NCBI GenBank assembly: GCA_019248485.1
Contig: JAEHGL010000001.1
Span: 11,446-75,445, forward strand
Direction: 5' to 3'
Source of the DNA: Candidatus Komeilibacteria bacterium S5_K13
GTDB taxonomy: Bacteria > Patescibacteriota > Patescibacteriia > UBA1558 > S5-K13
DNA length: 64,000 bases
Numbering within the stretch: position 1 is the stretch's first letter; each line of letters begins with the position of its first letter. Below, piece by piece: positions 1,639-61,292 of the stretch. The position numbers were made by a program, and so were the translations under genes. The notes beneath the pieces were generated by a model. That model was given only the letters and a program-made list of their open reading frames with translations. It ran no database searches and was not told the DNA's origin.

Positions 1639-2652
1639 TTATCTTGTCGAAAGTATACTTCTCTTATATGAATCTAAATTTTCTAAAGCAATGCCAGTTC
1701 CCTTGGCAACACAAAGATATGGTTTGTCAGCTACATAACAAGGAACTCCCGTTGTTTGAGTGAATAATTTGTCTATATTTCTAAGCTGAGAAGTACCACC
1801 CGACAAAATCATACCCTTTTCCATGACGTCAGCGGACAATTCTGGTGGAGTATTATACAAAACTGATTTAATAGCTGAAATAATTCCATATAATTCGTTT
1901 TGAAGAGCTTCGGTAATATCATCTGAAGTAATCTTTAAAATTCTTGGAAGACCAGAAATAATATCACGCCCCTTTATTTCAGTGCTCATTTTATCTTTCT
2001 CATCCAAAAATAATGCAGAGCCTATTTTGATTTTTATTGTCTCAGAACTTGACTCACCTATTGCAAGACCATATTTTTTCTTAATATGTTCCATTATTGC
2101 AGCATCAAATCTTGTTCCACCGATCCTTACTGAATTACTTGTTACTATTCCGCCAAGAGAAATAACGGCTATTTCTGTTGTTCCTCCACCAAGCTCTACT
2201 ATCATGTGTCCTGAAGCAGATCCTATTGGAATTTCGGCTCCTATTGCAGCTGCAAGAGGTTGTTTGATGATATAAGCAGCTTTTGCACCTGAGGCAAGCG
2301 TAGCGCCAATAACAGCACGTCTCTCAGTGGATGTAATCCCAGCTGGAACCGAGATCATAACTTCTGGCCTAAACAATTTAACACCAGACAAGGCTTTATT
2401 TATAAAATATCTAAGCATACTTTCTGTAGTTCTATAGTCTGCTATAACACCATCTTTTAAAGGGCGGTGTGCAATAATAGAATCAGGAGTACGTCCAATC
2501 ATTTCCTTTGCTTCATTACCAACAGCAAGCACTTTTTTATCAATCAAAGAAATAGCAACAACCGAAGGCTCATTTATAATAATCCCTTTTTTTGGCACAT
2601 AAACAAGCGTTGTTGTTGTGCCCAAATCTATTCCTATTTTTTTTCTAAACAT
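1639..2652 (-). CDS. mreB: Rod shape-determining protein MreB (actin-like ATPase).
   Basis: N-terminal IGIDLGTTTTLVYV phosphate-1 motif, with DxGGGTT and actin-fold motifs along the length. Confidence 0.85.
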   Translation of the reverse strand: MFRKKIGIDLGTTTTLVYVPKKGIIINEPSVVAISLIDKKVLAVGNEAKEMIGRTPDSIIAHRPLKDGVIADYRTTESMLRYFINKALSGVKLFRPEVMISVPAGITSTERRAVIGATLASGAKAAYIIKQPLAAAIGAEIPIGSASGHMIVELGGGTTEIAVISLGGIVTSNSVRIGGTRFDAAIMEHIKKKYGLAIGESSSETIKIKIGSALFLDEKDKMSTEIKGRDIISGLPRILKITSDDITEALQNELYGIISAIKSVLYNTPPELSADVMEKGMILSGGTSQLRNIDKLFTQTTGVPCYVADKPYLCVAKGTGIALENLDSYKRSILSTR

Positions 2653-3116
2653 TATTTTATTTCTAAAATTTTACACTTTACAAATCCCTTTGGAGTATTG
2701 ACGTCAAAACCTTCTCCGACTCTTTTATTAATAATAGCCTCGCCAAGTGGAGAAATATAAGAAATAAGTCCATTTATAGCATCACTCTCTGTTGCCCCCA
2801 CAAGTTCAATTTCTTGTTCTTTATTATCAAGAAGTATTTTAACTCTATTTCCAATATTTACAACGTCTTTTTTAGAATCTTTAAAATTTATAACAATTGC
2901 TTTCTTAATCAAATCTTCTAGCTCCATAATTCTTCCCTCTATAAAGCCCTGTTCTTCTCTAGCGTCGTGATATGCTGCATTTTCAGAGAGGTCTCCATAC
3001 TCTCTTGCTATTTCTATTCTTTTAATCACATCTGGCCTTTTTGTATTCTTCAAAAGATCAAGCTCTTCTTTTAACTTGCGTAAACCCTCTTCTGTAAGGT
3101 AATTTTGATTTTCCAT
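2652..3116 (-). CDS. greA: Transcription elongation factor GreA.
   Basis: TEEGLRKLKEELDLL...REYGDLSENAAYHDAREEQ is the GreA N-terminal coiled coil, followed by the FKBP-like C-domain. Confidence 0.85.
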   Translation of the reverse strand: MENQNYLTEEGLRKLKEELDLLKNTKRPDVIKRIEIAREYGDLSENAAYHDAREEQGFIEGRIMELEDLIKKAIVINFKDSKKDVVNIGNRVKILLDNKEQEIELVGATESDAINGLISYISPLGEAIINKRVGEGFDVNTPKGFVKCKILEIK

Positions 3117-6475: not shown

Positions 6476-7534
6476 TTATTTTTTATAAGAATTTTCAAAT
6501 GTAGGGGGAAGTAATACTTCTTTCAAACTATCGAAGTCCTCCACTACTATTCCTACACCTCTTATAACCGTTGTAAGAGAGTCATCAGCTATAATAACTG
6601 GGATTTGAGTAGCTTCATATATCATTTTATCTAAACCCAAAATATTTGCACCTCCACCCGACAAAACCATTCCTCTTTGATATAAATCTGAAACAAGTTC
6701 TGGTGGTGTATTTTCAACCACATCTTTTATTGCGCTAATAATAATATCTATTGATTTTTTTATTGCCTCTCTTACTTCCTCGCTTTTTAAAACTATTTCT
6801 TTTGGAAGTCCTGTCAAAAGGTTCCTTCCTCTTATTTTCATTTTTTGCGTCTTACTTTCTATTTGAAGCACATTTGCTATTTTTATTTTTACATTTTCTG
6901 CAGTTTTTTCACCCAAGAAAAGATTATATTTTTCTCTAACATAATCAATAATATCATTGTCTAATTTTTCTCCTGCTATCTTAAGAGATTTAGAGGCAAC
7001 TATTCCTCCCAAAGAAATTACTGCTATTTCTGTTTTTCCACCACCAAGCTCTACTATCATATTTCCATTTGCTTCTTGAATTGGCAATCTCACTCCTATT
7101 GCAGAGGCCATTGGTTGTTCGATAAGATAAACCTCTTTTGCGCCAGCAGAAAGTGCAACATCTTCAACCGCTTTTCTTTCAACTTCTGTAATATCAAGTG
7201 GAACGCCTATTATAATCCTTGGACGAAAAAACATAGAAAAAGATTCTTTGTGAATCTTGTCTATAAAATATTTCATCATCTTCTCTGTAATTTCAAAATC
7301 TGATATAACCCCATGTCTTAGTGGTTTGATGGCTAAAATATGTGGCGGGGTTTTTCCAAGCATTCTCCTTGCATCATCTCCAACTGAAAGAATTTGATCT
7401 ATTCTTGTATTAATAGCAACAACAGATGGCTCATTTACTATGATACCTTTTCCACTAACATAAAAAAGCGTGTTTGAAGTTCCTAGGTCAACACCAATGT
7501 CTTTTGACATTTTTGTAAAAAAGTTCTTTAACAT
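6476..7534 (-). CDS. mreB: Second MreB/Mbl paralog.
   Basis: IGVDLGTSNTLFYV and actin-fold motifs. It is a paralog of the gene at 1639-2652. Confidence 0.85.
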   Translation of the reverse strand: MLKNFFTKMSKDIGVDLGTSNTLFYVSGKGIIVNEPSVVAINTRIDQILSVGDDARRMLGKTPPHILAIKPLRHGVISDFEITEKMMKYFIDKIHKESFSMFFRPRIIIGVPLDITEVERKAVEDVALSAGAKEVYLIEQPMASAIGVRLPIQEANGNMIVELGGGKTEIAVISLGGIVASKSLKIAGEKLDNDIIDYVREKYNLFLGEKTAENVKIKIANVLQIESKTQKMKIRGRNLLTGLPKEIVLKSEEVREAIKKSIDIIISAIKDVVENTPPELVSDLYQRGMVLSGGGANILGLDKMIYEATQIPVIIADDSLTTVIRGVGIVVEDFDSLKEVLLPPTFENSYKK

Positions 7535-9039: not shown

Positions 9040-9125
9040 CCTCCTTCATTTGGACATTTCTCGCCTCGCTGAAGCTACCTGCCTCGACTTGTGTCTATGG
9101 CAAGGCGGGTGGCGAAGCGGGGAAA
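9040..9125 (+). repeat. GC-rich repeat element, copy 1 (~60-85 nt). Core sequence is ...TCGCCTCGCTGAAGCTACCTGCCTCGACTTGTGTCTATGGCAAGGCGGGTGGCGAAGCGGGG.
   Basis: The same sequence recurs at 38335-38415 and 61175-61292 in the same orientation. A diverged partial copy lies inside the CDS at 40003-40044. It is GC-rich in an AT-rich genome and contains internal inverted repeats. Confidence 0.8.
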
Positions 9126-11861: not shown

Positions 11862-11899
11862 ATTTTTAAGAATAGCAAATTTTCGACTAAATTACTACC

Positions 11900-13380
11900 C
11901 TGACATCACCTCAGAGGTGCATCACCTCAGAGGTGTTTAGCTGTGGATAACTACTATTGACAATAACTCTATGACATGCTATGTTACTTTATTGTACATT
12001 AACAATTCACTTCAAATTAACAGCAAGAAAAATGTAGAAGACTCTTTAAGAGGAGCTAATCTTTGGCGCCTTGAAAATAAACAAATTGCCATTTTAGCCA
12101 CTCTTCTACAGCTTTCTTGCTGTTAAAAAGGCTCCCTCTGTCAGAGATATTAGTTGACTAAGGAGCCATGATAAAGATGCCGCTTCCCTTAATTCTTTAT
12201 CCGAAATCAACAGAATTCAATTATTAAATAGGTGTTGATTGGTAGATAGAGGATGTTTCCCAACAATGGAGGTAACATGAGTATTCGGGGACAGCCCTAG
12301 ATTCCAAAATAAAAACAATCCCCCGAGACTTGGGGGAAATTCCGAATAGAAAAATTTTTTTGACAAAAGACATCCCTTGCTCCATTCTCCCCTAAAAGCA
12401 CATTACTACACATTAGAGGGATTTTACGGAAGCATGGGTAATATCTTTTGTCACCCGTCTTGTGGTCTTCGCGTCTGTTCAATGCTCTCGAGTTTTTAGC
12501 AAAGATCATTAGACACCCCTGGTGCCCCCATACGCACAGTAAGCGCACTCCCAACAATTGTTGGGAGTGAAAAAAGCGCTACGATATGTGCTGCTGGTTC
12601 TTTGAACCTGCCCTATAGCACTCAGAAATAGCGATGGGGGCTCACCAGAAAAACACCAAAGGCAACCTAGCAATTTTCCGGCTAATCCATGGTAACTCCG
12701 TTTTTTTTAGCGGTAATATCCATAGACAAAACCGGCCTAGGATGCCCGAGTGTGCGGACCAAAAGACTGTTAAGGGTTTACCTAAGGGCGCCCTTTCGCA
12801 CCTAGCTTGGTGCGAGCACAGTTTTGGCCACACGCGGCGACCCATGTCCCTGGCGCCTTCGCTCAATTGCTCATCGGGCTAAAACCTCCGATAAGAGCTA
12901 GAGAATCGTATTGCGAAGGCGCCTAATTCAATCAGTTCACATTGGTCCTTTATTGGATCAAACGGACCAAGGCCTAAAAAGCCCCGGCCTGTGCCAGCAG
13001 AAAGCTGACCAAGGCTCTCAAGTCCGAACCCAATGTGAACTCAAACCCCATTCTCTTTGGGGCTTGAATCGATAAGCGTAAAACAAATTACGCAAGTTGT
13101 TTACAAGCCCCCTTGAGATTTCAAGAAACAACCCCCGCAGTCTAATTGACTAGAGGGGTTAATGAAAGAAACATAAGTTTCTGAGAACCTCACGCCGAGG
13201 AATAATGCCTCTAGATAGAGTGTTCTCAGGGAAGACCGTCCAGAAGTCCTTCTGGACTCTAAACGACAACAAGCTTGACTGTAACCGAAAGGTACAGCCC
13301 GCCACGTCGTTAGACTCCTTAGGACTTCTGGAAAATTTTAACTAAGACCCGTAATACACTGTGGTCTTTTTTATTTGTCA
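11900..13380. ncRNA. Large GC-rich (~50% GC), hairpin-dense noncoding locus. Candidate structured RNA(s) of unknown family; strand unresolved.
   Basis: No credible ORF (the three track ORFs overlap each other on both strands). There are many perfect hairpins, for example CACTCCCAACAATTGTTGGGAGTG, GGCGCCTTCGC...GCGAAGGCGCC, and a long-range pair GTTCACATTGG/CCAATGTGAAC. A + strand promoter-like site sits at about 11957-11985 and a terminator at 13345-13377. Confidence 0.4.
13345..13377 (+). terminator. Hairpin AGACC-N13-GGTCT followed by a T-run.
   Basis: Stem-loop plus TTTTTTATTT at the 3' edge of the GC-rich locus. Confidence 0.45.
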
Positions 13381-13424
13381 GAAACCGACCCTGAGGGTCG
13401 ACCTAAAAATCTGCTCTTGACGAT

Positions 13425-13455
13425 TATATTTATATGTGATAAAATGCTACATTAA
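13425..13455 (+). promoter_or_regulatory. Sigma70-like promoter (TTGACG -17- TAAAAT) upstream of the beta-barrel gene.
   Basis: TTGACGATTATATTTATATGTGATAAAATG, followed by a strong SD AGGGAGG 6 nt before the ATG at 13481. Confidence 0.5.
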
Positions 13456-13480
13456 ATAAAATCAATAAAGGGAGGATATC

Positions 13481-16818: not shown

Positions 16819-16852
16819 CTCTATATAAAAACTAAACCCTAAATGCTAAATA

Positions 16853-17077
16853 CTAACCCCCTATTTTAATAGCACCATCTGGACAAATTCGCTCACAAGC
16901 TTTGCATTGAATACATAAATCAATATTACATTCTACAGTATCATTACCATATACCCCTCTATTATTGTCTTTTAGGGCAAGGCATTTTTTAGGACATATC
17001 TCTACACAAAGGCTACAGCCCTTGCAGTATTTGAAGTTGTTTATAAATATTTTATTTTCTTTTTGTGTTTTGTACAT
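16853..17077 (-). CDS. 2x[4Fe-4S] ferredoxin.
   Basis: Two CxxCxxCxxxCP motifs (CKGCSLCVEICP and CIQCKACERICP). Confidence 0.75.
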   Translation of the reverse strand: MYKTQKENKIFINNFKYCKGCSLCVEICPKKCLALKDNNRGVYGNDTVECNIDLCIQCKACERICPDGAIKIGG

Positions 17078-17080
17078 TGG

Positions 17081-17186
17081 GTTGGGTGGTTAGAAGGTTT
17101 CAGCCAGAGGCTGATCCGCCTTTGGCGGAAGATGGTTAGAGGGTTAGGTGGTTAGTAATCTATTCTAACCCTACTAACCTCACTAA
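17081..17186. repeat. GGTTAG/CTAACC hairpin element. The left arm is rich in GGTTAG, the right arm in CTAACC(C/T)TACTAACC.
   Basis: GGTTAGAGGGTTAGGTGGTTAG...TTCTAACCCTACTAACCTCACTAATC. Related copies lie at 30311-30378 and 30797-30866. Confidence 0.7.
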
Positions 17187-17195
17187 TCTACTGAC

Positions 17196-24416: not shown

Positions 24417-25715
24417 TTAGTCAATTTTTTCTGTTATATCCTGCGTTCCTCTTCTTATATCCCAATTATCACGACTCATGTCTGATTGCAATTTAAGCTC
24501 TGGGAATATTTTCATAATCTCATTGCTCATTTTGTGCGCAATTTTTCTAAGTGTTGGATGAACCGTTGTGCCAGATCTAAGCTCTATTACATAACATGCC
24601 CCTGGAAGACCATAGGACACGCGACAGGCAACATTAAATCCAAGAGATATATAATATTGTCTTTCATCCTCGCTTATCTCTAGTTTATTTATACGATTTA
24701 TTTGAGTTTTTATCAAGTCCTCTGCCTGAACTTTCAAATCTTCTGGTAATTGTGACAAATACCAATCATTAAAACCATGATTTATTGTAAGAAGTGGCAT
24801 TCGACAAACTCCATTTCTATGTCTTTGCAAGTCTCTAAAAGACCCAAAATCAAGTAAAAAATCAAATCTTACTATGCCTAGCTCTGCTAAAAATTGTGGA
24901 AATCCTGTTTTACTAGACCTCTTATCAAACAAGTCTTTATATTTTATGAGCTCATCATGTTTTATATCAGTATAAAATGAAAAATTATTTTCTATTTTTT
25001 CCCCATTATAATAACCGTATTCTTTCATTAAATATTCTCTATAGTTTTCTTGATTTTCAAATAATTCATTACTAAAACTATGTGAATATTTTTCTTTTAG
25101 ATTATTCCAAATGCCATCTGAAATTTCTCTAACCTCTTTAAGTGGCCAGTGGCGCATTAGAGAAAGCTTATCAGATGCTTGACGTAAATTGCTATGCCAT
25201 GAAAGCTGAGTTGTAATTCCTGCAGGCAAAAATCCCCTCATTATATCAAAGCACCTTGCGTTAACTGCTTTTTGATAAATTATTTCATCCTCGTTTTCTT
25301 TTTTTGGATAAAGCCCTCTAATATACTCTTTTAATCTTTCTTGACTTCCAATATAAAAATCCATCCAGCTTTTCAAAATTACTTTTGACTCTTCACTTTC
25401 AAGTGGATCTATAATTTCCTGTTTAGACATATCAATATAACGAGTGCTTGTTTCTTGACCACTGTAAAGTGGCCAGTCTTGAATAGCTTTGTCAGCCAAT
25501 ATACTAAGTTTCTCTATAAAAATAGTTGTGCTTCCACAATCAGCAATGCTTGAATGACCATAGCCAAGATAAAAAGTCTCCATAAACTTTCCTGATCCAG
25601 ATTTTCTTACTTTTTCAACATGATCTACAACGCTACTTGCACTTCTTGAATAAAGCGCTTGAAGCATTGCGTTGTCTTCTGGATTAAACTCATCAAAAAC
25701 AAATATTTTGGCCAT
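24417..25715 (-). CDS. thyX: Flavin-dependent thymidylate synthase ThyX, tandem (pseudo-dimeric) form.
   Basis: The N-terminal LQALYSRSASS resembles the ThyX N-terminal helix. The first half lacks RHR (WPLYSGQETSTRY sits in its place). The second half keeps the RHR motif (FRDLQRHRNG). Located in a dTMP-pathway cluster. Confidence 0.6.
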   Translation of the reverse strand: MAKIFVFDEFNPEDNAMLQALYSRSASSVVDHVEKVRKSGSGKFMETFYLGYGHSSIADCGSTTIFIEKLSILADKAIQDWPLYSGQETSTRYIDMSKQEIIDPLESEESKVILKSWMDFYIGSQERLKEYIRGLYPKKENEDEIIYQKAVNARCFDIMRGFLPAGITTQLSWHSNLRQASDKLSLMRHWPLKEVREISDGIWNNLKEKYSHSFSNELFENQENYREYLMKEYGYYNGEKIENNFSFYTDIKHDELIKYKDLFDKRSSKTGFPQFLAELGIVRFDFLLDFGSFRDLQRHRNGVCRMPLLTINHGFNDWYLSQLPEDLKVQAEDLIKTQINRINKLEISEDERQYYISLGFNVACRVSYGLPGACYVIELRSGTTVHPTLRKIAHKMSNEIMKIFPELKLQSDMSRDNWDIRRGTQDITEKID

Positions 25716-25779
25716 ACGTTTAGTTGTTAGTATTTAGATTTTAGTATTTAGCTAATTACTGAAAACTGAAAGCTGACAG

Positions 25780-30310: not shown

Positions 30311-30378
30311 TTAGTGGATTAGTTGATTAGATAATTAGAAATATATATCCCTAACCCTACTAACCTTACTAATCTAAA
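30311..30378. repeat. GGTTAG/CTAACC hairpin element, copy B.
   Basis: TTAGTGGATTAGTTGATTAG...CCCTAACCCTACTAACCTTACTAATC. Confidence 0.7.
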
Positions 30379-30796: not shown

Positions 30797-30866
30797 TTGG
30801 TTAGGTGGTTAGTTGATTAGATGGTTAGCGACTTATTCTAACCTTACTAACCCTACTAATCCACTA
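30797..30866. repeat. GGTTAG/CTAACC hairpin element, copy C.
   Basis: GGTTAGGTGGTTAGTTGATTAGATGGTTAG...TTCTAACCTTACTAACCCTACTAATCC. Confidence 0.7.
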
Positions 30867-31295: not shown

Positions 31296-31431
31296 ATAAT
31301 TATTAGAATTTAGTATTTAGAATTTAGTTTTTAGAGGAACTAATAAACCACACAATTATCAATATTTAAATTCATAATACTTACCTAAGAAGCCTACACC
31401 ACCAAAGCGGGAGTAGATAAGTAAAAAATTA

Positions 31432-37843: not shown

Positions 37844-38323
37844 TTAAAAATTCAATTTCCAGATAAAGAAATTCAATACAGATGCAAAACTTACCCATAA
37901 TATATATGGGATTAAAATAAGTGACGCAATTCTTGAAATTTTATAAAACCCAATAATGGTTGCAAATATAGAAATCCACAAAATCATTATTTCAAAGAAT
38001 GCAAACATTGGAGATTCTAATCCAAAAAATAGTATTGACCAAAGAATATTTAAAATAAGCTGTATAGCAAATATTATTATTACTTCTTTTTTATAAGCCC
38101 TATCTTTGAATTTACTTGTCCAAATAATATAAAGAGAGATTCCCATTAAAATAAATAGAATTGTCCATACCGGCCCAAAAAGATAATTTGGTGGATTAAA
38201 AGATGGCTTTGTAACGCCTTGATACCATGTAGCTATTTTAGGAGTTGTAAAAAAAGACCCCAAAAATCCAGCAAACTGACAAATTAAGATAGAGATAATT
38301 AGCTTTAGTGTTTTAGATTTCAT
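37844..38323 (-). CDS. tspO: TspO/MBR family tryptophan-rich sensory protein.
   Basis: WYQGVTKPSFNPPNYLFGPVWTILFILMG signature. Confidence 0.75.
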   Translation of the reverse strand: MKSKTLKLIISILICQFAGFLGSFFTTPKIATWYQGVTKPSFNPPNYLFGPVWTILFILMGISLYIIWTSKFKDRAYKKEVIIIFAIQLILNILWSILFFGLESPMFAFFEIMILWISIFATIIGFYKISRIASLILIPYILWVSFASVLNFFIWKLNF

Positions 38324-38334
38324 ATTTTCTTTGT

Positions 38335-38415
38335 CCGGTTGCTCGCCTCGCTATCGCTACCTGCCTCGACTTGCGTCTATGGCAAGGCGGGTGGCGAAGC
38401 GGGACTAACCGGATA
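38335..38415 (+). repeat. GC-rich repeat element, copy 2.
   Basis: CCGGTTGCTCGCCTCGCTATCGCTACCTGCCTCGACTTGCGTCTATGGCAAGGCGGGTGGCGAAGCGGG. Confidence 0.8.
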
Positions 38416-38419
38416 TTAA

Positions 38420-39739
38420 TTACTTAACAAAAATTAATCCCAAGAAACTGACCCCTACTATTATTAGAGCTGATACAAAAAATCTAAGTGCAAATTTACG
38501 ACTTCCCTGAGCATAAGAAAAAATACTCTTGCTAAATAAATTTGTAGCGTTCACAAGCAAAAATACAAAAGTTGCAAATTGAAACGTAATGTCACGACCC
38601 GCCATTTCGGCAAGAGAAACAAGTATTGCGTCTAATCCTGTAAAAGAAGCTATTATAGAACTTATTACAAAACCAGCCTTACCAAACAATACCAAGCAAA
38701 TCTTTGTTACTATTTTTACAATTATTAAAATTCCTGCAAACTTGAGCGCTGGCATAAGTGCAAATATTTTACCCTCTGTCTCTTCGACTTCCTTTTGCTT
38801 TTTCTCTTTTTCTTTTTTACGCAAAAATATAGTAGCTATAATAGCGGCGGAAATTATCATTATTGAAATACTTGGCAAAATAGATACAAGCCAAGCTGCA
38901 TTAAGTGGACCGACTAATAAAAAGATTTGAAAAAAACTAGCTAGGTTTGATAAAATAGCAGCACCAAGCAAATAATTAACAGTCGATGACTTTTTACTTC
39001 TTTGAGCTAAAGACTGAGTTGTTGATGTTGAAGAAACAAAACCCCCTACAAAACTTGTAAGACTAAAACTACTTTTATTACCAATAAGTCTTCCAAGTAG
39101 ATATCCAAAAAGATCTATTCCTGTAATCAAAACTACAACCATCCATATTTTTCTTGGATTGATTAATTCAATTACAGCAAATTTTCCAAGATCAACATTT
39201 AGACTTGCAAATATTTGAGCTAAAAACGGAATGTCCATTAGCTTGTATCCTACGTTTGGCAGAAAAGGCAAAACAATTAAAGCTATAATTGCATAACTTA
39301 TAAAAGACTGTAATTCTTTTTTTGAAACACTCTGGGTAATTTTTTGAGTTGTTGCTTTTACAGACAAAATCAAAATTACTACCACAAACAAAGCTATGAT
39401 TAAATAAAGCGGTAAAATATTAAGTGTTATAAGTAGACCCATTAAAAATGTAAATAAAATAGCCAACTCACTTGTCAGCCCCAAGTCTTTTGTAATAATA
39501 GAGCTTATTAAATAAGAAGAAATGAGTAAAACAAAAAAAGCGCTTGATATAAGAAGTGCAAACATCGGCAATTGACTAGAATAAAGTATTCCAGCAACAG
39601 ATCCAAGAAGACCTATCATTGAATATGTTCTTAGCCCACCAGCAGACCCCAAATCCTGATTACTATTTTCACGCTCTAATCCTATAGCAGCACCTAATAA
39701 AAGTGAAAGTAGTAACTTCCCCACCAAAGTCTCAAACAT
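38420..39739 (-). CDS. MgtC/SapB-family membrane protein with a DUF4010-like C-terminal extension.
   Basis: LLLSLLLGAAIGLERE...AGGLRTYSMIGLLGS is the MgtC N-terminal signature. About ten TM helices. Confidence 0.65.
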   Translation of the reverse strand: MFETLVGKLLLSLLLGAAIGLERENSNQDLGSAGGLRTYSMIGLLGSVAGILYSSQLPMFALLISSAFFVLLISSYLISSIITKDLGLTSELAILFTFLMGLLITLNILPLYLIIALFVVVILILSVKATTQKITQSVSKKELQSFISYAIIALIVLPFLPNVGYKLMDIPFLAQIFASLNVDLGKFAVIELINPRKIWMVVVLITGIDLFGYLLGRLIGNKSSFSLTSFVGGFVSSTSTTQSLAQRSKKSSTVNYLLGAAILSNLASFFQIFLLVGPLNAAWLVSILPSISIMIISAAIIATIFLRKKEKEKKQKEVEETEGKIFALMPALKFAGILIIVKIVTKICLVLFGKAGFVISSIIASFTGLDAILVSLAEMAGRDITFQFATFVFLLVNATNLFSKSIFSYAQGSRKFALRFFVSALIIVGVSFLGLIFVK

Positions 39740-39841
39740 AAATTATTTTTAATAATTATATGAATTAATTATAACAGATTAGAAAACATTATAAAATAAA
39801 AAATACCCTGTAGGATGAATATTTATTTTTTTAAAAAAACG

Positions 39842-40642
39842 CTATCTTAACTCGTACAAAATAATTCCTGCACTTATTGCAACATTAAGAGATTCTATTT
39901 TATCAATGCTTAGAGAGATCATTCCATCTGATTTATCTAATATGGCCTGACCTATACCATTTGCTTCATTTCCAAAAACAATACAATATTTTTTGCTCGC
40001 CTTGGCGTAGCTGGAGCTCCGCTTCGGCGAAGCCATGTCTTTTAGTTTTTCTGGTAGTACCCCACCCGTCATAACGGTAGAATAAATTTTCATTTCTTTT
40101 TTTATTTTTTGAAATATTTCTAGGTCCTTGTCAAAAGAAATATTTAGCTTAAAAATAGAATCTTTACTGGCATTTATTACTTTTGGATTATAAATATCTA
40201 CACAGGTATCATCTACAACGATGTTATAAAACCCAAACGCAAGAGAGGTCCTAAGTATTGTTCCCATATTTCCAGGATCATTTATTCCATTTAGATAAAT
40301 AATATTACTTTTAAAATCAATATCTCTATTTATCTTATCATATATAGCATAAATTCCTGAAGAGGTTGTGAGACAAGAAATATAGTCATTTACCCCTTGA
40401 TTTATAATATGAAAATTTTCTACTTTTGATAAAATAAAATTAGCATCTTCACCATTTTTGTCTAATAAATCCCCTCTTATAAATAATTCCTTTGGCAAAA
40501 TACCAAACTCAATCGCGTCATGAATAGTCGTCAAACTCTCAACAAAAAAGAGATCATCTTCACTCCTCGTCTTTTTATCTTGAAGTTTCTTTAGATATTT
40601 TATTTTTTCATTATTTGTGCTTCTAATAATTTCTTGTTCCAT
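39842..40642 (-). CDS. SpoU/TrmH-class RNA 2'-O-methyltransferase, carrying an in-frame GC-rich insert (..MASPKRSSSYAKASKK..).
   Basis: IVFGNEANGI and LNVAISAGIILYE SPOUT motifs. Nucleotides 40003-40044 match the GC-rich repeat family in reverse orientation. Confidence 0.7.
   Translation of the reverse strand: MEQEIIRSTNNEKIKYLKKLQDKKTRSEDDLFFVESLTTIHDAIEFGILPKELFIRGDLLDKNGEDANFILSKVENFHIINQGVNDYISCLTTSSGIYAIYDKINRDIDFKSNIIYLNGINDPGNMGTILRTSLAFGFYNIVVDDTCVDIYNPKVINASKDSIFKLNISFDKDLEIFQKIKKEMKIYSTVMTGGVLPEKLKDMASPKRSSSYAKASKKYCIVFGNEANGIGQAILDKSDGMISLSIDKIESLNVAISAGIILYELR
40003..40044 (-). repeat. Diverged partial copy of the GC-rich repeat, embedded in frame within the SpoU methyltransferase CDS.
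   Basis: The reverse complement GGCTTCGCCGAAGCGGAGCTCCAGCTACGCCAAGGCGAGCAAA aligns with the right part of copy 3 (GGCGAAGCGGGCCTACGGCTACGCCGAGGC...). Confidence 0.5.
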
Positions 40643-41719: not shown

Positions 41720-41788
41720 ATTCTTATTCTATCAAAATTACTACAAAAATGAAATCTACTGCATCTTATGTTAATAAACGAAAATAAA

Positions 41789-41822
41789 TCGCCTATTAAT
41801 ATAAGCGATTTATTAGAGTGCA
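41789..41822 (-). terminator. Hairpin AAATCGC-N12-GCGATTT after the large surface-protein gene.
   Basis: 7-bp stem followed by a U-rich tract on the minus strand. Confidence 0.35.
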
Positions 41823-41848
41823 AATAACTATTCGTTTTCTAAATCAGA

Positions 41849-58946: not shown

Positions 58947-58995
58947 CGTTTTTTAAAACAAAAAGACGTCTTGATATAAAACGTCTCTTATGCTC
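58947..58995. repeat. 49-bp direct repeat A (Bro-N gene 3' end plus terminator hairpin AGACGT...ACGTCT). Its mate lies at 61120-61168, with one mismatch.
   Basis: AAAACAAAAAGACGTCTTGATATAAAACGTCTCTTATGCTCTAATATGT. Confidence 0.8.
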
Positions 58996-59866
58996 TAATA
59001 TGTGATTCATTACTATTTTGAAAAACCTTTTTTAACTTTTTTTGCTTTGATAATCTTTTAAAATTGTTTTTACTCACTATCGGCTTACCAGTTTTTTGTT
59101 CCAATTCTAAACGAGCATTTTTCGCAACATGTCCACCTTTTTTTGCGGGAATTTTATTATCTTCTACTCCTTTTGTTTCCATTGTTTCTGCAATTTGGCG
59201 TGTAGAAAGTTCTGCTAAAGCTGTAAAAACTAGCTCGGCATCTGTCATGTGATCTCGTAAATTTTCTTGACGCAAATCTTTTAAGCTCTTGTGTTCTTTT
59301 ATTGTAAGATCACTCCATTCTTTATGAATAATATTTGTCAAAATAGCATACTCCTCTTTTTTTCTTACTTCATTATCCTTCCAATAATCAGTCAATTTAT
59401 TGCGAATTTCTTGTCCCATCATTCTCTGTTGTATCCATTTTTTATCTCGTCCCATTTTCTGCCAATATTCACAACTTCTATCTAAAGCTCTTTCTGGATC
59501 ATTCATTTCTTGCACTCTTTCATAACCAACTTTTGCTAACCATAATTTAATAGGTTCAGCCTTTTTGCTTGGAATAGATTGAATAAGGCGCAAAATTGTT
59601 TCTACGTCAGCAACATCTGTTTTATAAAATTTACCATCTGCGGACAAAAGTTTCAGTTTGTCACATTTTGTGACAGACTCATTTCCCTCTCTTTTTAAAC
59701 GATTTTTAAGAGTTGCCCAATAACTTTGTGCTTTTTTGAAATCTATTTGCTCAATTAAAATAGCAACGATATCAATTACTGAAAAATACCATGTCTCAGT
59801 CTTTTCATCATAATATCGACGAATTTTGTGAGTTTTAAAAATAGCAATGTTTTTATTTTTTTTCAT
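58988..59866 (-). CDS. Bro-N domain protein with a DinD-like (DNA-damage-inducible protein D) C-terminal region.
   Basis: The N-terminal IAIFKTHKIRRYYDEKTETWYFSVIDIVAIL resembles Bro-N. The C-terminal FTALAELSTRQIAE...KKGGHVAKNARLELEQKTGKPIVS is DinD-like. Confidence 0.55.
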   Translation of the reverse strand: MKKNKNIAIFKTHKIRRYYDEKTETWYFSVIDIVAILIEQIDFKKAQSYWATLKNRLKREGNESVTKCDKLKLLSADGKFYKTDVADVETILRLIQSIPSKKAEPIKLWLAKVGYERVQEMNDPERALDRSCEYWQKMGRDKKWIQQRMMGQEIRNKLTDYWKDNEVRKKEEYAILTNIIHKEWSDLTIKEHKSLKDLRQENLRDHMTDAELVFTALAELSTRQIAETMETKGVEDNKIPAKKGGHVAKNARLELEQKTGKPIVSKNNFKRLSKQKKLKKVFQNSNESHIRA

Positions 59867-61119: not shown

Positions 61120-61168
61120 AAAACAAAAAGACGTCTTGAAATAAAACGTCTCTTATGCTCTAATATGT
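61120..61168. repeat. 49-bp direct repeat B (orphan copy of the Bro-N gene end and terminator).
   Basis: AAAACAAAAAGACGTCTTGAAATAAAACGTCTCTTATGCTCTAATATGT. Confidence 0.8.
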
Positions 61169-61174
61169 TATTTT

Positions 61175-61292
61175 CGACGCAACCCCGTCTTCGCTCGCCT
61201 CGCATTCGCTACCTGCCTCGACTTGTGTCTATGGCAAGGCGGGTGGCGAAGCGGGCCTACGGCTACGCCGAGGCAGGTCGGTTGCTCGAAAC
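61175..61292 (+). repeat. GC-rich repeat element, copy 3 (the longest). It has an additional right arm containing CGAGGCAGGT, which is complementary to ACCTGCCTCG.
   Basis: ...CGCCTCGCATTCGCTACCTGCCTCGACTTGTGTCTATGGCAAGGCGGGTGGCGAAGCGGGCCTACGGCTACGCCGAGGCAGGTCGGTTGCTCG. Confidence 0.8.

Follow-up and report, generated by a model that had tools for sequence, protein, structure and literature searches.

A probable palindromic repeat module lying in frame within a SPOUT methyltransferase gene of Candidatus Komeilibacteria

Here we describe a GC-rich block of 42 nucleotides (nt) that lies in frame inside a gene for a SpoU-class (SPOUT) RNA 2'-O-methyltransferase, in a 64,000-nt stretch of the genome of Candidatus Komeilibacteria bacterium S5_K13 (contig JAEHGL010000001.1; the whole stretch is hereafter called the window). 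The block is most probably a GC-rich palindromic module of a family of intergenic hairpin repeats, inserted in the SPOUT gene and translated as a loop of the enzyme. An earlier description by a model that saw only the sequence and its open reading frames (ORFs), below called the sequence-only reading, had proposed a repeat-derived in-frame insertion tolerated in a loop, and this is supported by the presence and absence of the segment among relatives, by the sequence of the repeat family and by the predicted loop. Genomes of the Patescibacteria (candidate phyla radiation, CPR) are small and AT-rich and are thought to be poor in mobile DNA.

Results

The 42-nt block and its host gene

Judged by its sequence and modelled fold, the host gene product is a member of the SPOUT methyltransferase family, which we defined by a SpoU_methylase domain, the motifs N-x-G-x-I-x-R, G-x-E-x-x-G and E-S-L-N-V and a knotted alpha/beta fold. 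The protein holds a SpoU_methylase domain (PF00588, E = 6e-29) and an N-terminal MRM3-like substrate-binding domain (PF22435, E = 1e-8), and an alignment with 22 homologues showed that the invariant SPOUT residues N125, G127, I129, R131, G224, E226, G229, E250, S251 and N253 are all kept. In the PDB it matches 7qiu (YsgA) at E = 1e-20, and the best Foldseek matches of its AlphaFold2 model are RlmR (9h1k), YsgA (7qiu) and 5kzk, with template modelling (TM) scores of 0.77-0.80; these nearest solved structures are 23S rRNA A-loop 2'-O-methyltransferases. The source labels of its homologues are Falkowbacteria, Parcubacteria, Moranbacteria or Patescibacteria.

The block contains 67% GC as against about 28% for the host gene, and in a 40-nt sliding window the GC content is 65% at 40000-40039 compared with 10-45% in the rest of the gene. 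Alignment to an insert-free orthologue set the edges of the indel at exactly 42 nt (AAAGAC, 42 nt, AAAA), with an ambiguity of 1-2 nt (TG on the plus strand) and a duplication no longer than 1-2 nt. A GC-rich segment of about this length within an AT-rich coding sequence, in frame between SPOUT regions of a SpoU-class methyltransferase whose ORF remains open, is what the sequence-only reading had described, and we could confirm it: the block lies between motif 1 and motif 2, and the ORF, the PF00588 domain and the catalytic motifs are whole. The segment had been placed at 40003-40044, which overlaps the block, but the indel really spans 39995-40036 and the earlier coordinates were 8 nt too far right. 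Its plus strand reads GCTCGCCTTGGCGTAGCTGGAGCTCCGCTTCGGCGAAGCCAT and its coding strand ATGGCTTCGCCGAAGCGGAGCTCCAGCTACGCCAAGGCGAGC; the ORF around it translates as ...KLKDMASPKRSSSYAKASKKYCIVFGNE..., the block itself supplying residues 203-216, a Ser/Lys/Ala-rich peptide (MASPKRSSSYAKAS). Five of the six reading phases of the block are free of stop codons. The coding strand folds as an imperfect hairpin (-11.5 kcal/mol, z = -2.65, with 3 of 200 shuffles equally good), the ends GCTCGCC and GGCGAAGC pairing as an imperfect terminal inverted repeat. An intron, an intein and translational bypass could be ruled out, the 42 nt being in frame, stop-free and too short to encode more. An assembly artefact could likewise be rejected because the insert recurs in at least four independent assemblies (the window, loci L004, L127 and L128, and the P0001 contigs).

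Presence and absence among relatives

Among 5.8 billion proteins searched we found 6,673 homologues, of which 22 were aligned and the best 120 scanned for inserts. In these sets the 14-residue segment was confined to the 90% cluster of the window protein, whose members P0121, P0122 and P0123 (88-100% identity) all carry it, and to P0003 (83% identity). About 115 of the 120 homologue clusters have no counterpart; P0002, with 93% identity over the shared residues, shows an exact 14-residue gap, and the segment is likewise missing from P0004 (59-63% identity), the outgroup nearest to the window clade. At the DNA level we compared five syntenic loci, namely the window, L001, L127, L128 and L004, with pairwise nucleotide identities of 82-93%. 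The SpoU site is filled in four of the five and empty only in L001, which has a clean 42-nt gap in an otherwise intact gene. In each gene compared, the best identity of L001 is to a carrier of the insert (90.5% to the window for SpoU, 91.4% to L127 for MgtC and 93.0% to L127 for the ATPase gene). The suggestion that the segment would prove lineage-specific upon alignment with orthologues was thus borne out. Because L001 nests among carriers and the outgroups are without the insert, the simplest history suggested by these alignments would be a single gain at the base of a genus-level clade, followed by an exact loss in L001. Two gene-content differences were noted in the same comparison: L001, L004 and L127 have, between SpoU and MgtC, an AstE/AspA-like gene that L128 and the window lack (positions 39740-39841 and 41720-41848 of the latter), and a DUF2207 gene found in L001, L004 and L127 is also absent from the window. 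The gene trees of these close relatives are mosaic, which suggests frequent recombination.

Predicted structure of the inserted segment

The AlphaFold2 model, built on the 22-sequence alignment, has a mean predicted local distance difference test score (pLDDT) of 88.8 and a predicted TM score of 0.86. Residues 205-215, within the insert, are its sole segment with pLDDT below 50. This segment is preceded by helix 197-204 and followed by strand 219-225, which enters the G-N-E-A-N-G motif, and the PDB homologues have a gap or a short loop at this position. The loop location proposed by the sequence-only reading is therefore upheld at the level of prediction: the extra 14 residues are predicted to form a disordered loop that leaves the knot and the catalytic motifs untouched.

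Relation to the intergenic GC-rich repeats

The repeat search found a 67-nt GC-rich repeat in three copies, at 9059, 38341 and 61193, all on the plus strand, and a profile search refined these to exactly three full 62-nt cores in the window, each of the form CTCGCCTCGC...GCGAAGCGGG (Table 1). The core is a hairpin within a hairpin, in which an outer stem formed by CTCGCCTCGC and GCGAAGCGGG (9 of 10 positions pair including one G-T wobble, 8 of 10 being Watson-Crick pairs) encloses an inner hairpin CTACCTGCCTCG...CAAGGCGGGTGG. An imperfect inverted repeat peculiar to copy 1, GACATTTC...GAAATTTGTC, brackets that copy, and copy 2 folds at -23.2 kcal/mol (z = -4.6). Copy 3 is part of a composite that folds at -33 kcal/mol (z = -4.5), whose outer inverted repeat has its arms at 61172-61184 and 61280-61291; the composite holds an E-type module, as we call the module type of the 42-nt block, that is split by the 62-nt core into 61182-61193 and 61256-61279. 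A 53-nt direct repeat (AAAACAAAAAGACGTCTTGAWATAAAACGTCTCTTATGCTCTAATATGT), 96% identical between 58955-59007 and 61120-61172 and containing a small inverted repeat GACGTCTT...AAACGTC, has its second copy directly upstream of copy 3.

The block is related to this composite by several comparisons. Its coding strand matches 61245-61277 on the plus strand at 25 of 33 positions without gaps, compared with 19-21 of 33 for the best unrelated matches in the window, and its local alignment with the copy-3 module minus the core (ACCCCGTCTTCGCCTACGGCTACGCCGAGGCAGG) matches at 23 of 28 positions (p ~0.001, composition-matched shuffles). The reverse-orientation match to the right half of copy 3 reported from the sequence alone was thus reproduced, while a stronger link had been overlooked, namely terminal 8-mers common to the block and the intergenic cores in the same orientation. 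Read in the plus orientation of the core, the block begins with GCTCGCCT and ends with GGCGAAGC; in the 128 kb of both strands of the window these occur three and four times, respectively, and only at the termini of the intergenic copies or of the block. Furthermore, the copy-3 module minus the core aligned over its full length with the SpoU insert of a distant orthologue, L005 (p ~0.0015; see below), and an nhmmer profile of the E-type module found the SpoU inserts and 61255-61277.

The alternative that the block arose locally, by slippage, duplication or de novo expansion, and that its likeness to the repeats is a by-product of GC-rich palindromic composition, draws on the shortness and self-complementarity of the common motifs (GCTCGCC / GGCGAAGC, GCTTCGCC), on the alignment to the 62-nt core alone (p = 0.15) and on the occurrence of the same motif vocabulary in unrelated high-GC sequences. 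We consider it very improbable: there is no nearby template, the flanks having 10-30% GC and no sequence in common with the block, the terminal 8-mers are restricted to the repeats and the block, the copy-3 match exceeds the background maximum, and homologous modules occur both at the same site in another clade and at an intergenic site of the window.

An exact search of the whole window with the 42-mer, allowing up to 3 mismatches, found the block itself only; its tie to the family consists in the termini and the copy-3 module, and no second full copy contributes to it. A metagenome scan with GGCTTCGCCGAAGCGGAGC gave 115 matches, of which 113 lay in loci of about 0.5-0.7 GC (rounded bins) and were regarded as noise; the only AT-rich ones were L033 and L086, and the metagenome collection contained no orthologous SpoU locus. 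L033 is an AT-rich contig with an intergenic hairpin that has 23 consecutive nt in common with the L004 insert. The AT-rich contig L086 holds, at about 380-900, a tandem array of about 500 nt made of units of about 22 nt with the same motif vocabulary (GGCTTCGCCRAAGCRGAGCAAA). The repeats fit no known RNA family: Rfam at gathering thresholds detected only tRNA-Cys in the whole window, and at E up to 10 the region 38250-40100 gave only chance hairpin or microRNA-like matches to copy 2. We also considered that 10 extra nt of the window-clade insert (CGAAGCGGAG), which are absent from L005 and from the copy-3 module minus the core and are placed exactly where the core sits in copy 3, could be the footprint of an excised 62-nt core, though the long form is also seen at another locus, in L033.

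Recurrent GC-rich inserts in the methyltransferase family

Internal insertions of at least six residues were found in 5 of the 120 homologues, at three sites, and the four of these five that we could view at the DNA level are all GC-rich inserts in genes of 27-33% GC, implying that in-frame capture of GC-rich palindromes is recurrent in these organisms. The most informative case is P0018 (locus L005), which is 48% identical to the window protein and carries a 33-nt insert of 76% GC, absent from its five nearest relatives (70-75% identity). When L005 is compared with L129 and L130 (77-79% nucleotide identity), its 33 nt prove to be cleanly inserted (CA^[33 nt]^GAA) without any duplication; the insert has the orientation of that in the window clade and lies no more than 1 nt from the site of the latter (GAC^AAA). 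At the level of sequence alignment this shows that a homologous module was inserted independently at nearly the same site in a distant orthologue, and such a recurrence hints at a preferred target or, alternatively, at strong filtering for the only loop in which additional residues are tolerated. In P0005 (L007) a 69-nt insert lies in the interdomain linker, with ends (CCCGCCTTCGC...GCGAGGCGA) that are similar to those of the reverse-complemented core, though not significantly so (p = 0.07). The in-frame 78-nt palindrome of P0097 (L006, 98-976) belongs to another family; its terminal inverted repeats, TCATTGCGAGC...GCTCCTCGCAATGA, are perfect, it folds at -19.4 kcal/mol and it encodes SLRAERSNPDEIATSLLDKLGAPRND. 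The protein holds two more small inserts.

The sequence-only reading would have been contradicted by distant orthologues carrying the same segment with normal codon composition; about 115 of 120 are without it, and the L005 module has 76% GC. The same data bear on the alternative that the protein family had the segment from the start and that most lineages have since deleted it. Two distant clades do carry a related segment at the same position, and the clean loss in L001 shows that precise deletion occurs. An ancestral origin is nevertheless extremely improbable, given the absence of the segment from nearly all clusters, including P0004 and the five nearest relatives of P0018, and given that, without repeated re-insertion or conversion, an unstructured loop could not credibly have kept 60-76% GC and a nucleotide identity of about 80% between proteins only 48% identical.

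The core's inner hairpin (CTACCTGCCTCGACTTGCGTC...GCAAGGCGGG) was also seen in frame in a gene of another family, a GatD-type glutamine amidotransferase (L010, 2627-2683, within the minus-strand ORF 2252..3010), where it directly follows the ICGGYQLLG motif and encodes YLPRLASGKAGK. The segment is 5 amino acids (aa) longer than its counterpart in S. aureus GatD, and as the comparison was with that protein only we did not count it as a proven insertion.

Evidence that the repeat family moves

The spacer between the MgtC and TspO genes provides a filled and an empty state for copy 2. In L127 and L128 it contains a bare small hairpin, TCCGGTTAGTCAACCGGA, with no core; in the window and L004 the same hairpin has the 62-nt core in its loop, between AGT and CAAC; and L001 has neither hairpin nor core. 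In the L004 orthologue of copy 2, an extra 30-nt mini-hairpin (CTCGCCTCGCTGAAGTTTTGGCGAAGCGGG, at 6964-6993), equal to the outer stem of the core alone, sits in turn in the loop of the inner hairpin, and among the relatives compared it was found in L004 only. When GTDB genomes were scanned with a 20-mer from the core, two further copies (L008 and L009) came to light on another contig of the metagenome-assembled genome (MAG) of L001. L008 has the same host hairpin and core at an unrelated locus, with a compensatory G-C to A-T change, and its hairpin and core are 96% identical to those of copy 2 over 106 nt, as against 85-89% elsewhere between those two genomes; in general the intergenic core is about 96% identical between genomes that are 15-20% different. 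Each of the five cores seen is bracketed by its own, differing outer inverted repeat, which fits insertion into the loops of pre-existing hairpins.

In four filled-versus-empty comparisons, target duplications were never longer than 1-2 nt: the window-clade SpoU site has the 1-2 nt ambiguity, the copy 2 core and the L004 mini-hairpin each have an overlap of 1 nt (G), and L005 has none. The CTCGCC end is preceded by TTG in the three filled-versus-empty events with a core-type end and in five of seven core copies. As a target rule, TTG^ fails for L005 (TTC), copy 1 (TTT) and copy 3 (TCG), and we keep it as a lead. The motif GCGAAGC lies at the element end. This heptamer forms an exceptionally stable mini-hairpin in single-stranded DNA.

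A phage vector is unsupported, as the viral scan gave no matches with the core and 12 with the mini-hairpin pattern, all in contigs of 54-73% GC. One lineage of IMG/VR contigs (L132, L133, L134, L136 and L141; 67-69% GC) carries CTCGCCTCGCTGAAGC[G/T]CCGGCGAAGCGGG, which matches the L004 mini-hairpin at 26 of 30 positions and may reflect a shared origin or the convergence of a simple palindrome.

Other features of the window

The window has a GC content of 31.5%, a GC skew that is negative throughout and most of its genes on the minus strand. The Pfam assignments of the roughly 50 ORFs scanned are to housekeeping functions only, among them MreB/C, PBP2, GreA, RRF, EF-Ts, S2, L1, L11, L31, NusG, RF-1, PrmC, RecJ, ThyX, P-type ATPase, MgtC and TspO. 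The ThyX-like ORF (24417-25715, minus strand, 432 aa) has its Thy1 domain in residues 19-209 only, and its C-terminal half gave no Pfam match. A second, AT-rich family of intergenic repeats consists of TTAG/CTAA-periodic inverted repeats (D9, D11, D16, I15 and I23), which may be terminator-like hairpins. A region of about 1.6 kb directly upstream of a dnaX-like gene (11862-13480, best studied at 12450-13420) has no ORF of at least 90 aa and 40-58% GC; its fold beats shuffles by far on both strands (z = -10.7), the minimum free energy being -399 kcal/mol for the minus strand and -360 kcal/mol for the plus strand, and with no Rfam match up to E = 1 it is a candidate large structured RNA.

Table 1. 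Coordinates, in the window, of the insert, its host gene and the repeats
Feature	Position	Strand	Evidence
GC-rich in-frame insert, 42 nt (E-type module)	39995..40036	-	42-nt gap in L001, GC profile, hairpin, pLDDT
Host gene, SpoU/TrmH-family (SPOUT) RNA 2'-O-methyltransferase, 266 aa	39842..40642	-	ORF, Pfam, PDB, AlphaFold2, Foldseek
Repeat copy 1, 62-nt core, between frr (RRF) and an M50 peptidase gene	9060..9121	+	repeat and profile search
Repeat copy 2, 62-nt core	38342..38403	+	repeat family D3; nhmmer E = 5e-22
Host hairpin TCCGGTT...AACCGGA in the MgtC-TspO spacer, copy 2 in its loop	38334..38413	+	alignment with L127, L128, L004
Repeat copy 3, 62-nt core	61194..61255	+	repeat and profile search
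Composite around copy 3: outer inverted repeat TTTCGACGCAACC ... GGTTGCTCGAAA enclosing an E-type module	61172..61291	+	sequence, fold
AT-rich TTAG/CTAA repeat copies	1560-1635, 16826-16856, 17130-17192, 25720-25751, 30351-30376, 30803-30865, 31303-31334		repeat search

Discussion

Selfish DNA or a functional loop

We infer that the modules are mobile selfish DNA, active now or recently, and that the insert has a neutral or nearly neutral effect on the enzyme; the block is best read as selfish or passenger DNA. Several observations weigh against this interpretation of the block as a mobile repeat module. No transposase, REP-associated tyrosine transposase (RAYT, where REP stands for repetitive extragenic palindrome) or insertion sequence (IS) gene was detected among the roughly 50 ORFs of the window scanned against Pfam, and no mobilising enzyme could be linked to the repeats. 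The block and the 62-nt core are alike only at short terminal motifs (local alignment p = 0.15), the 64 kb hold only one full E-type copy and one split relative, and in JGI metagenomes a scan with a 19-mer turned up L033 and the L086 tandem array but no further locus carrying the same 42-nt element. The gene trees of the five syntenic relatives are mosaic, so the filled and empty pattern could stem from recombination between alleles and not from excision. Finally, conservation at the nucleotide level is higher in the insert than in the remainder of the gene, which a purely neutral loop would not predict: among the window, L127 and L128 it varies at 2 of 42 sites, compared with 19% in the rest of the gene and 39% at third codon positions (Fisher p ~0.01).

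This last point leads to the alternative that a repeat insertion is now functional and selected, either as a basic Ser/Lys-rich loop binding 23S rRNA or as an mRNA hairpin or antisense terminator. In its favour, 41-42 of the 42 nt of the insert are shared by these three loci, its peptide is identical between proteins that are 9-12% different elsewhere, another clade has independently fixed a related module at this loop, and a terminator-like hairpin with a T-run was scored on the antisense strand at 40021-40033. The terminator scan was permissive, however, with 4 sites found against 1.2 expected; the close relative L001 has an intact gene without the insert, the L004 copy has acquired 5 substitutions, 4 of them non-synonymous, which break the stem, and AlphaFold2 predicts no structure for the segment. 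In addition, nucleotide conservation would follow equally from recent spread or gene conversion, the core being likewise strongly conserved between genomes 15-20% apart. A selected function therefore appears decidedly unlikely. The high conservation of both insert and core points to a spread that was recent, to gene conversion between copies or to nucleic-acid-level constraint; the peptide may have a role, but L001 does without the insert and the L004 copy decays.

Possible routes of insertion

The reading that we favour, a captured repeat module, would involve few steps. A 42-nt palindromic module would have entered the coding sequence of the SPOUT rRNA 2'-O-methyltransferase; because 42 is divisible by three and all phases but one of the six are open, it would be translated and add 14 residues, leaving a working gene; and the added loop, placed after helix 197-204 and before the strand that runs to the GNE motif, would be tolerated by the enzyme. 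For the insertion itself two candidate routes can be envisaged. The lack of duplications, the dependence on hairpins, the exact loss and the GCGAAGC motif at the element end suggest a single-strand route with a hairpin-recognising HUH/Y1-type enzyme, as in REP/RAYT and IS200/IS605 systems; neither Y1_Tnp nor other transposase families were found among the roughly 50 window ORFs or among the genes called in loci L001, L004, L127 and L128. The other candidate is hairpin-promoted template switching or gene conversion between copies. Template switching and gene conversion have been proposed for mitochondrial GC clusters (PMC8811140), and the same features fit this route equally.

A bolder idea, which we hold to be doubtful, is that the GC-rich hairpins of 30-62 nt are a family of site-selective "homing" micro-elements of Patescibacteria. 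Such elements would insert without duplication into hairpin loops and a few defined coding sites, would be excised precisely, would remain nearly identical across species that are 15-20% different and would move through single-strand hairpins, whether or not a dedicated HUH enzyme takes part. Homing would explain the recurrence within 1 nt in orthologues 48% identical, the exact restoration of the empty site and the nesting of cores three to four deep.

Comparison with known repeat families

The closest functional analogues, by likeness of behaviour, seem to be the Rickettsia palindromic elements (RPEs) and, equally close, the GC clusters of yeast mitochondria. RPEs are inserted in frame into many housekeeping genes (Ogata et al. 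2000, summarised in PMC10969869). Like the repeats described here, they are palindromic repeats of a reduced AT-rich bacterial genome that lie both between genes and in frame in housekeeping genes, where they add a peptide compatible with the fold. RPEs are, however, about 100-150 bp long with a conserved peptide and have dozens of intragenic copies per genome, whereas we observed inserts of 42 nt (33 nt in the other clade) with a GC content far above that of the genome and one intragenic copy in 64 kb; they also belong to another phylum and show no sequence similarity to our repeats, in which nesting in hairpin loops is prominent, so that the likeness is functional only. Membership in the RPE family found no support, since organism and size differ and no match to Rfam or another family was obtained.

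Mitochondrial GC clusters are likewise GC-rich palindromes of about 30-50 bp in an AT-rich genome, mostly intergenic and with common terminal motifs; they combine or nest into new clusters, make polymorphic in-frame insertions in a coding gene, and are suspected of spreading by gene conversion. The coding gene in question is yeast var1 (PMC8811140). In contrast to our repeats they are organellar, and they usually have AG/TAG terminal repeats that are read as target duplications, while duplications here do not exceed 1-2 nt; a relationship in sequence is not to be expected.

With REPs, bacterial interspersed mosaic elements (BIMEs), their RAYTs and IS200/IS605-type elements, the modules share short imperfect palindromes that are often located just downstream of genes, small single-stranded DNA hairpins, the lack of target-site duplication and the possibility of precise loss. 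The block (z = -2.65), copy 2 (z = -4.6) and copy 3 (z = -4.5) agree with the REP stem-loop definition of an imperfect palindrome of 20-40 nt, and as to copy number, three cores and one E-type copy lie in 64 kb, with two more cores on the other contig of the related MAG. REPs are, on the other hand, extragenic by definition, and an association with a RAYT was not seen in the window or in loci L001, L004, L127 and L128; nor was a TnpA, as expected for IS200/IS605-type elements, found in the window and locus sequences scanned. The term "REP-like" used by the sequence-only reading is thus apt as regards the imperfect palindrome and the repeat family, but it expresses a functional analogy only, with no RAYT or transposase in the window, and RPEs or GC clusters are the better comparison. 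[quoted passage not shown] They are occasionally intragenic and in frame, as is the block (PMC10969869). MITEs such as Correia, ERIC and Nezha differ in being typically 100-400 bp long, in having target-site duplications that are clear and in having a parent IS that can be recognised, and nothing of this was seen here; in particular, no such duplication appeared in the four filled-versus-empty comparisons. Strict membership in the REP, MITE or RPE class is therefore not supported. Within the library searched, a literature search for palindromic, REP or MITE elements in CPR, Patescibacteria or Parcubacteria found nothing relevant, which is absence of evidence and not proof of novelty.

Significance

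The findings indicate that Patescibacteria carry tiny GC-rich palindromic repeats resembling RPEs and mitochondrial GC clusters in behaviour, which nest in hairpin loops, vary in presence between sister species and may sometimes become translated loops of conserved enzymes. Most intriguing about them are their same-site recurrence in distant orthologues, their exact loss from one lineage and their nesting within the loops of hairpins. For annotation, such repeats would account for odd GC-rich "extra loops" rich in Ala, Ser, Pro, Arg and Lys and for spurious small ORFs in MAGs of this kind. For the study of evolution, the filled and empty alleles and the same-site recurrence could be used to ask how these elements move and whether they supply new segments to proteins.

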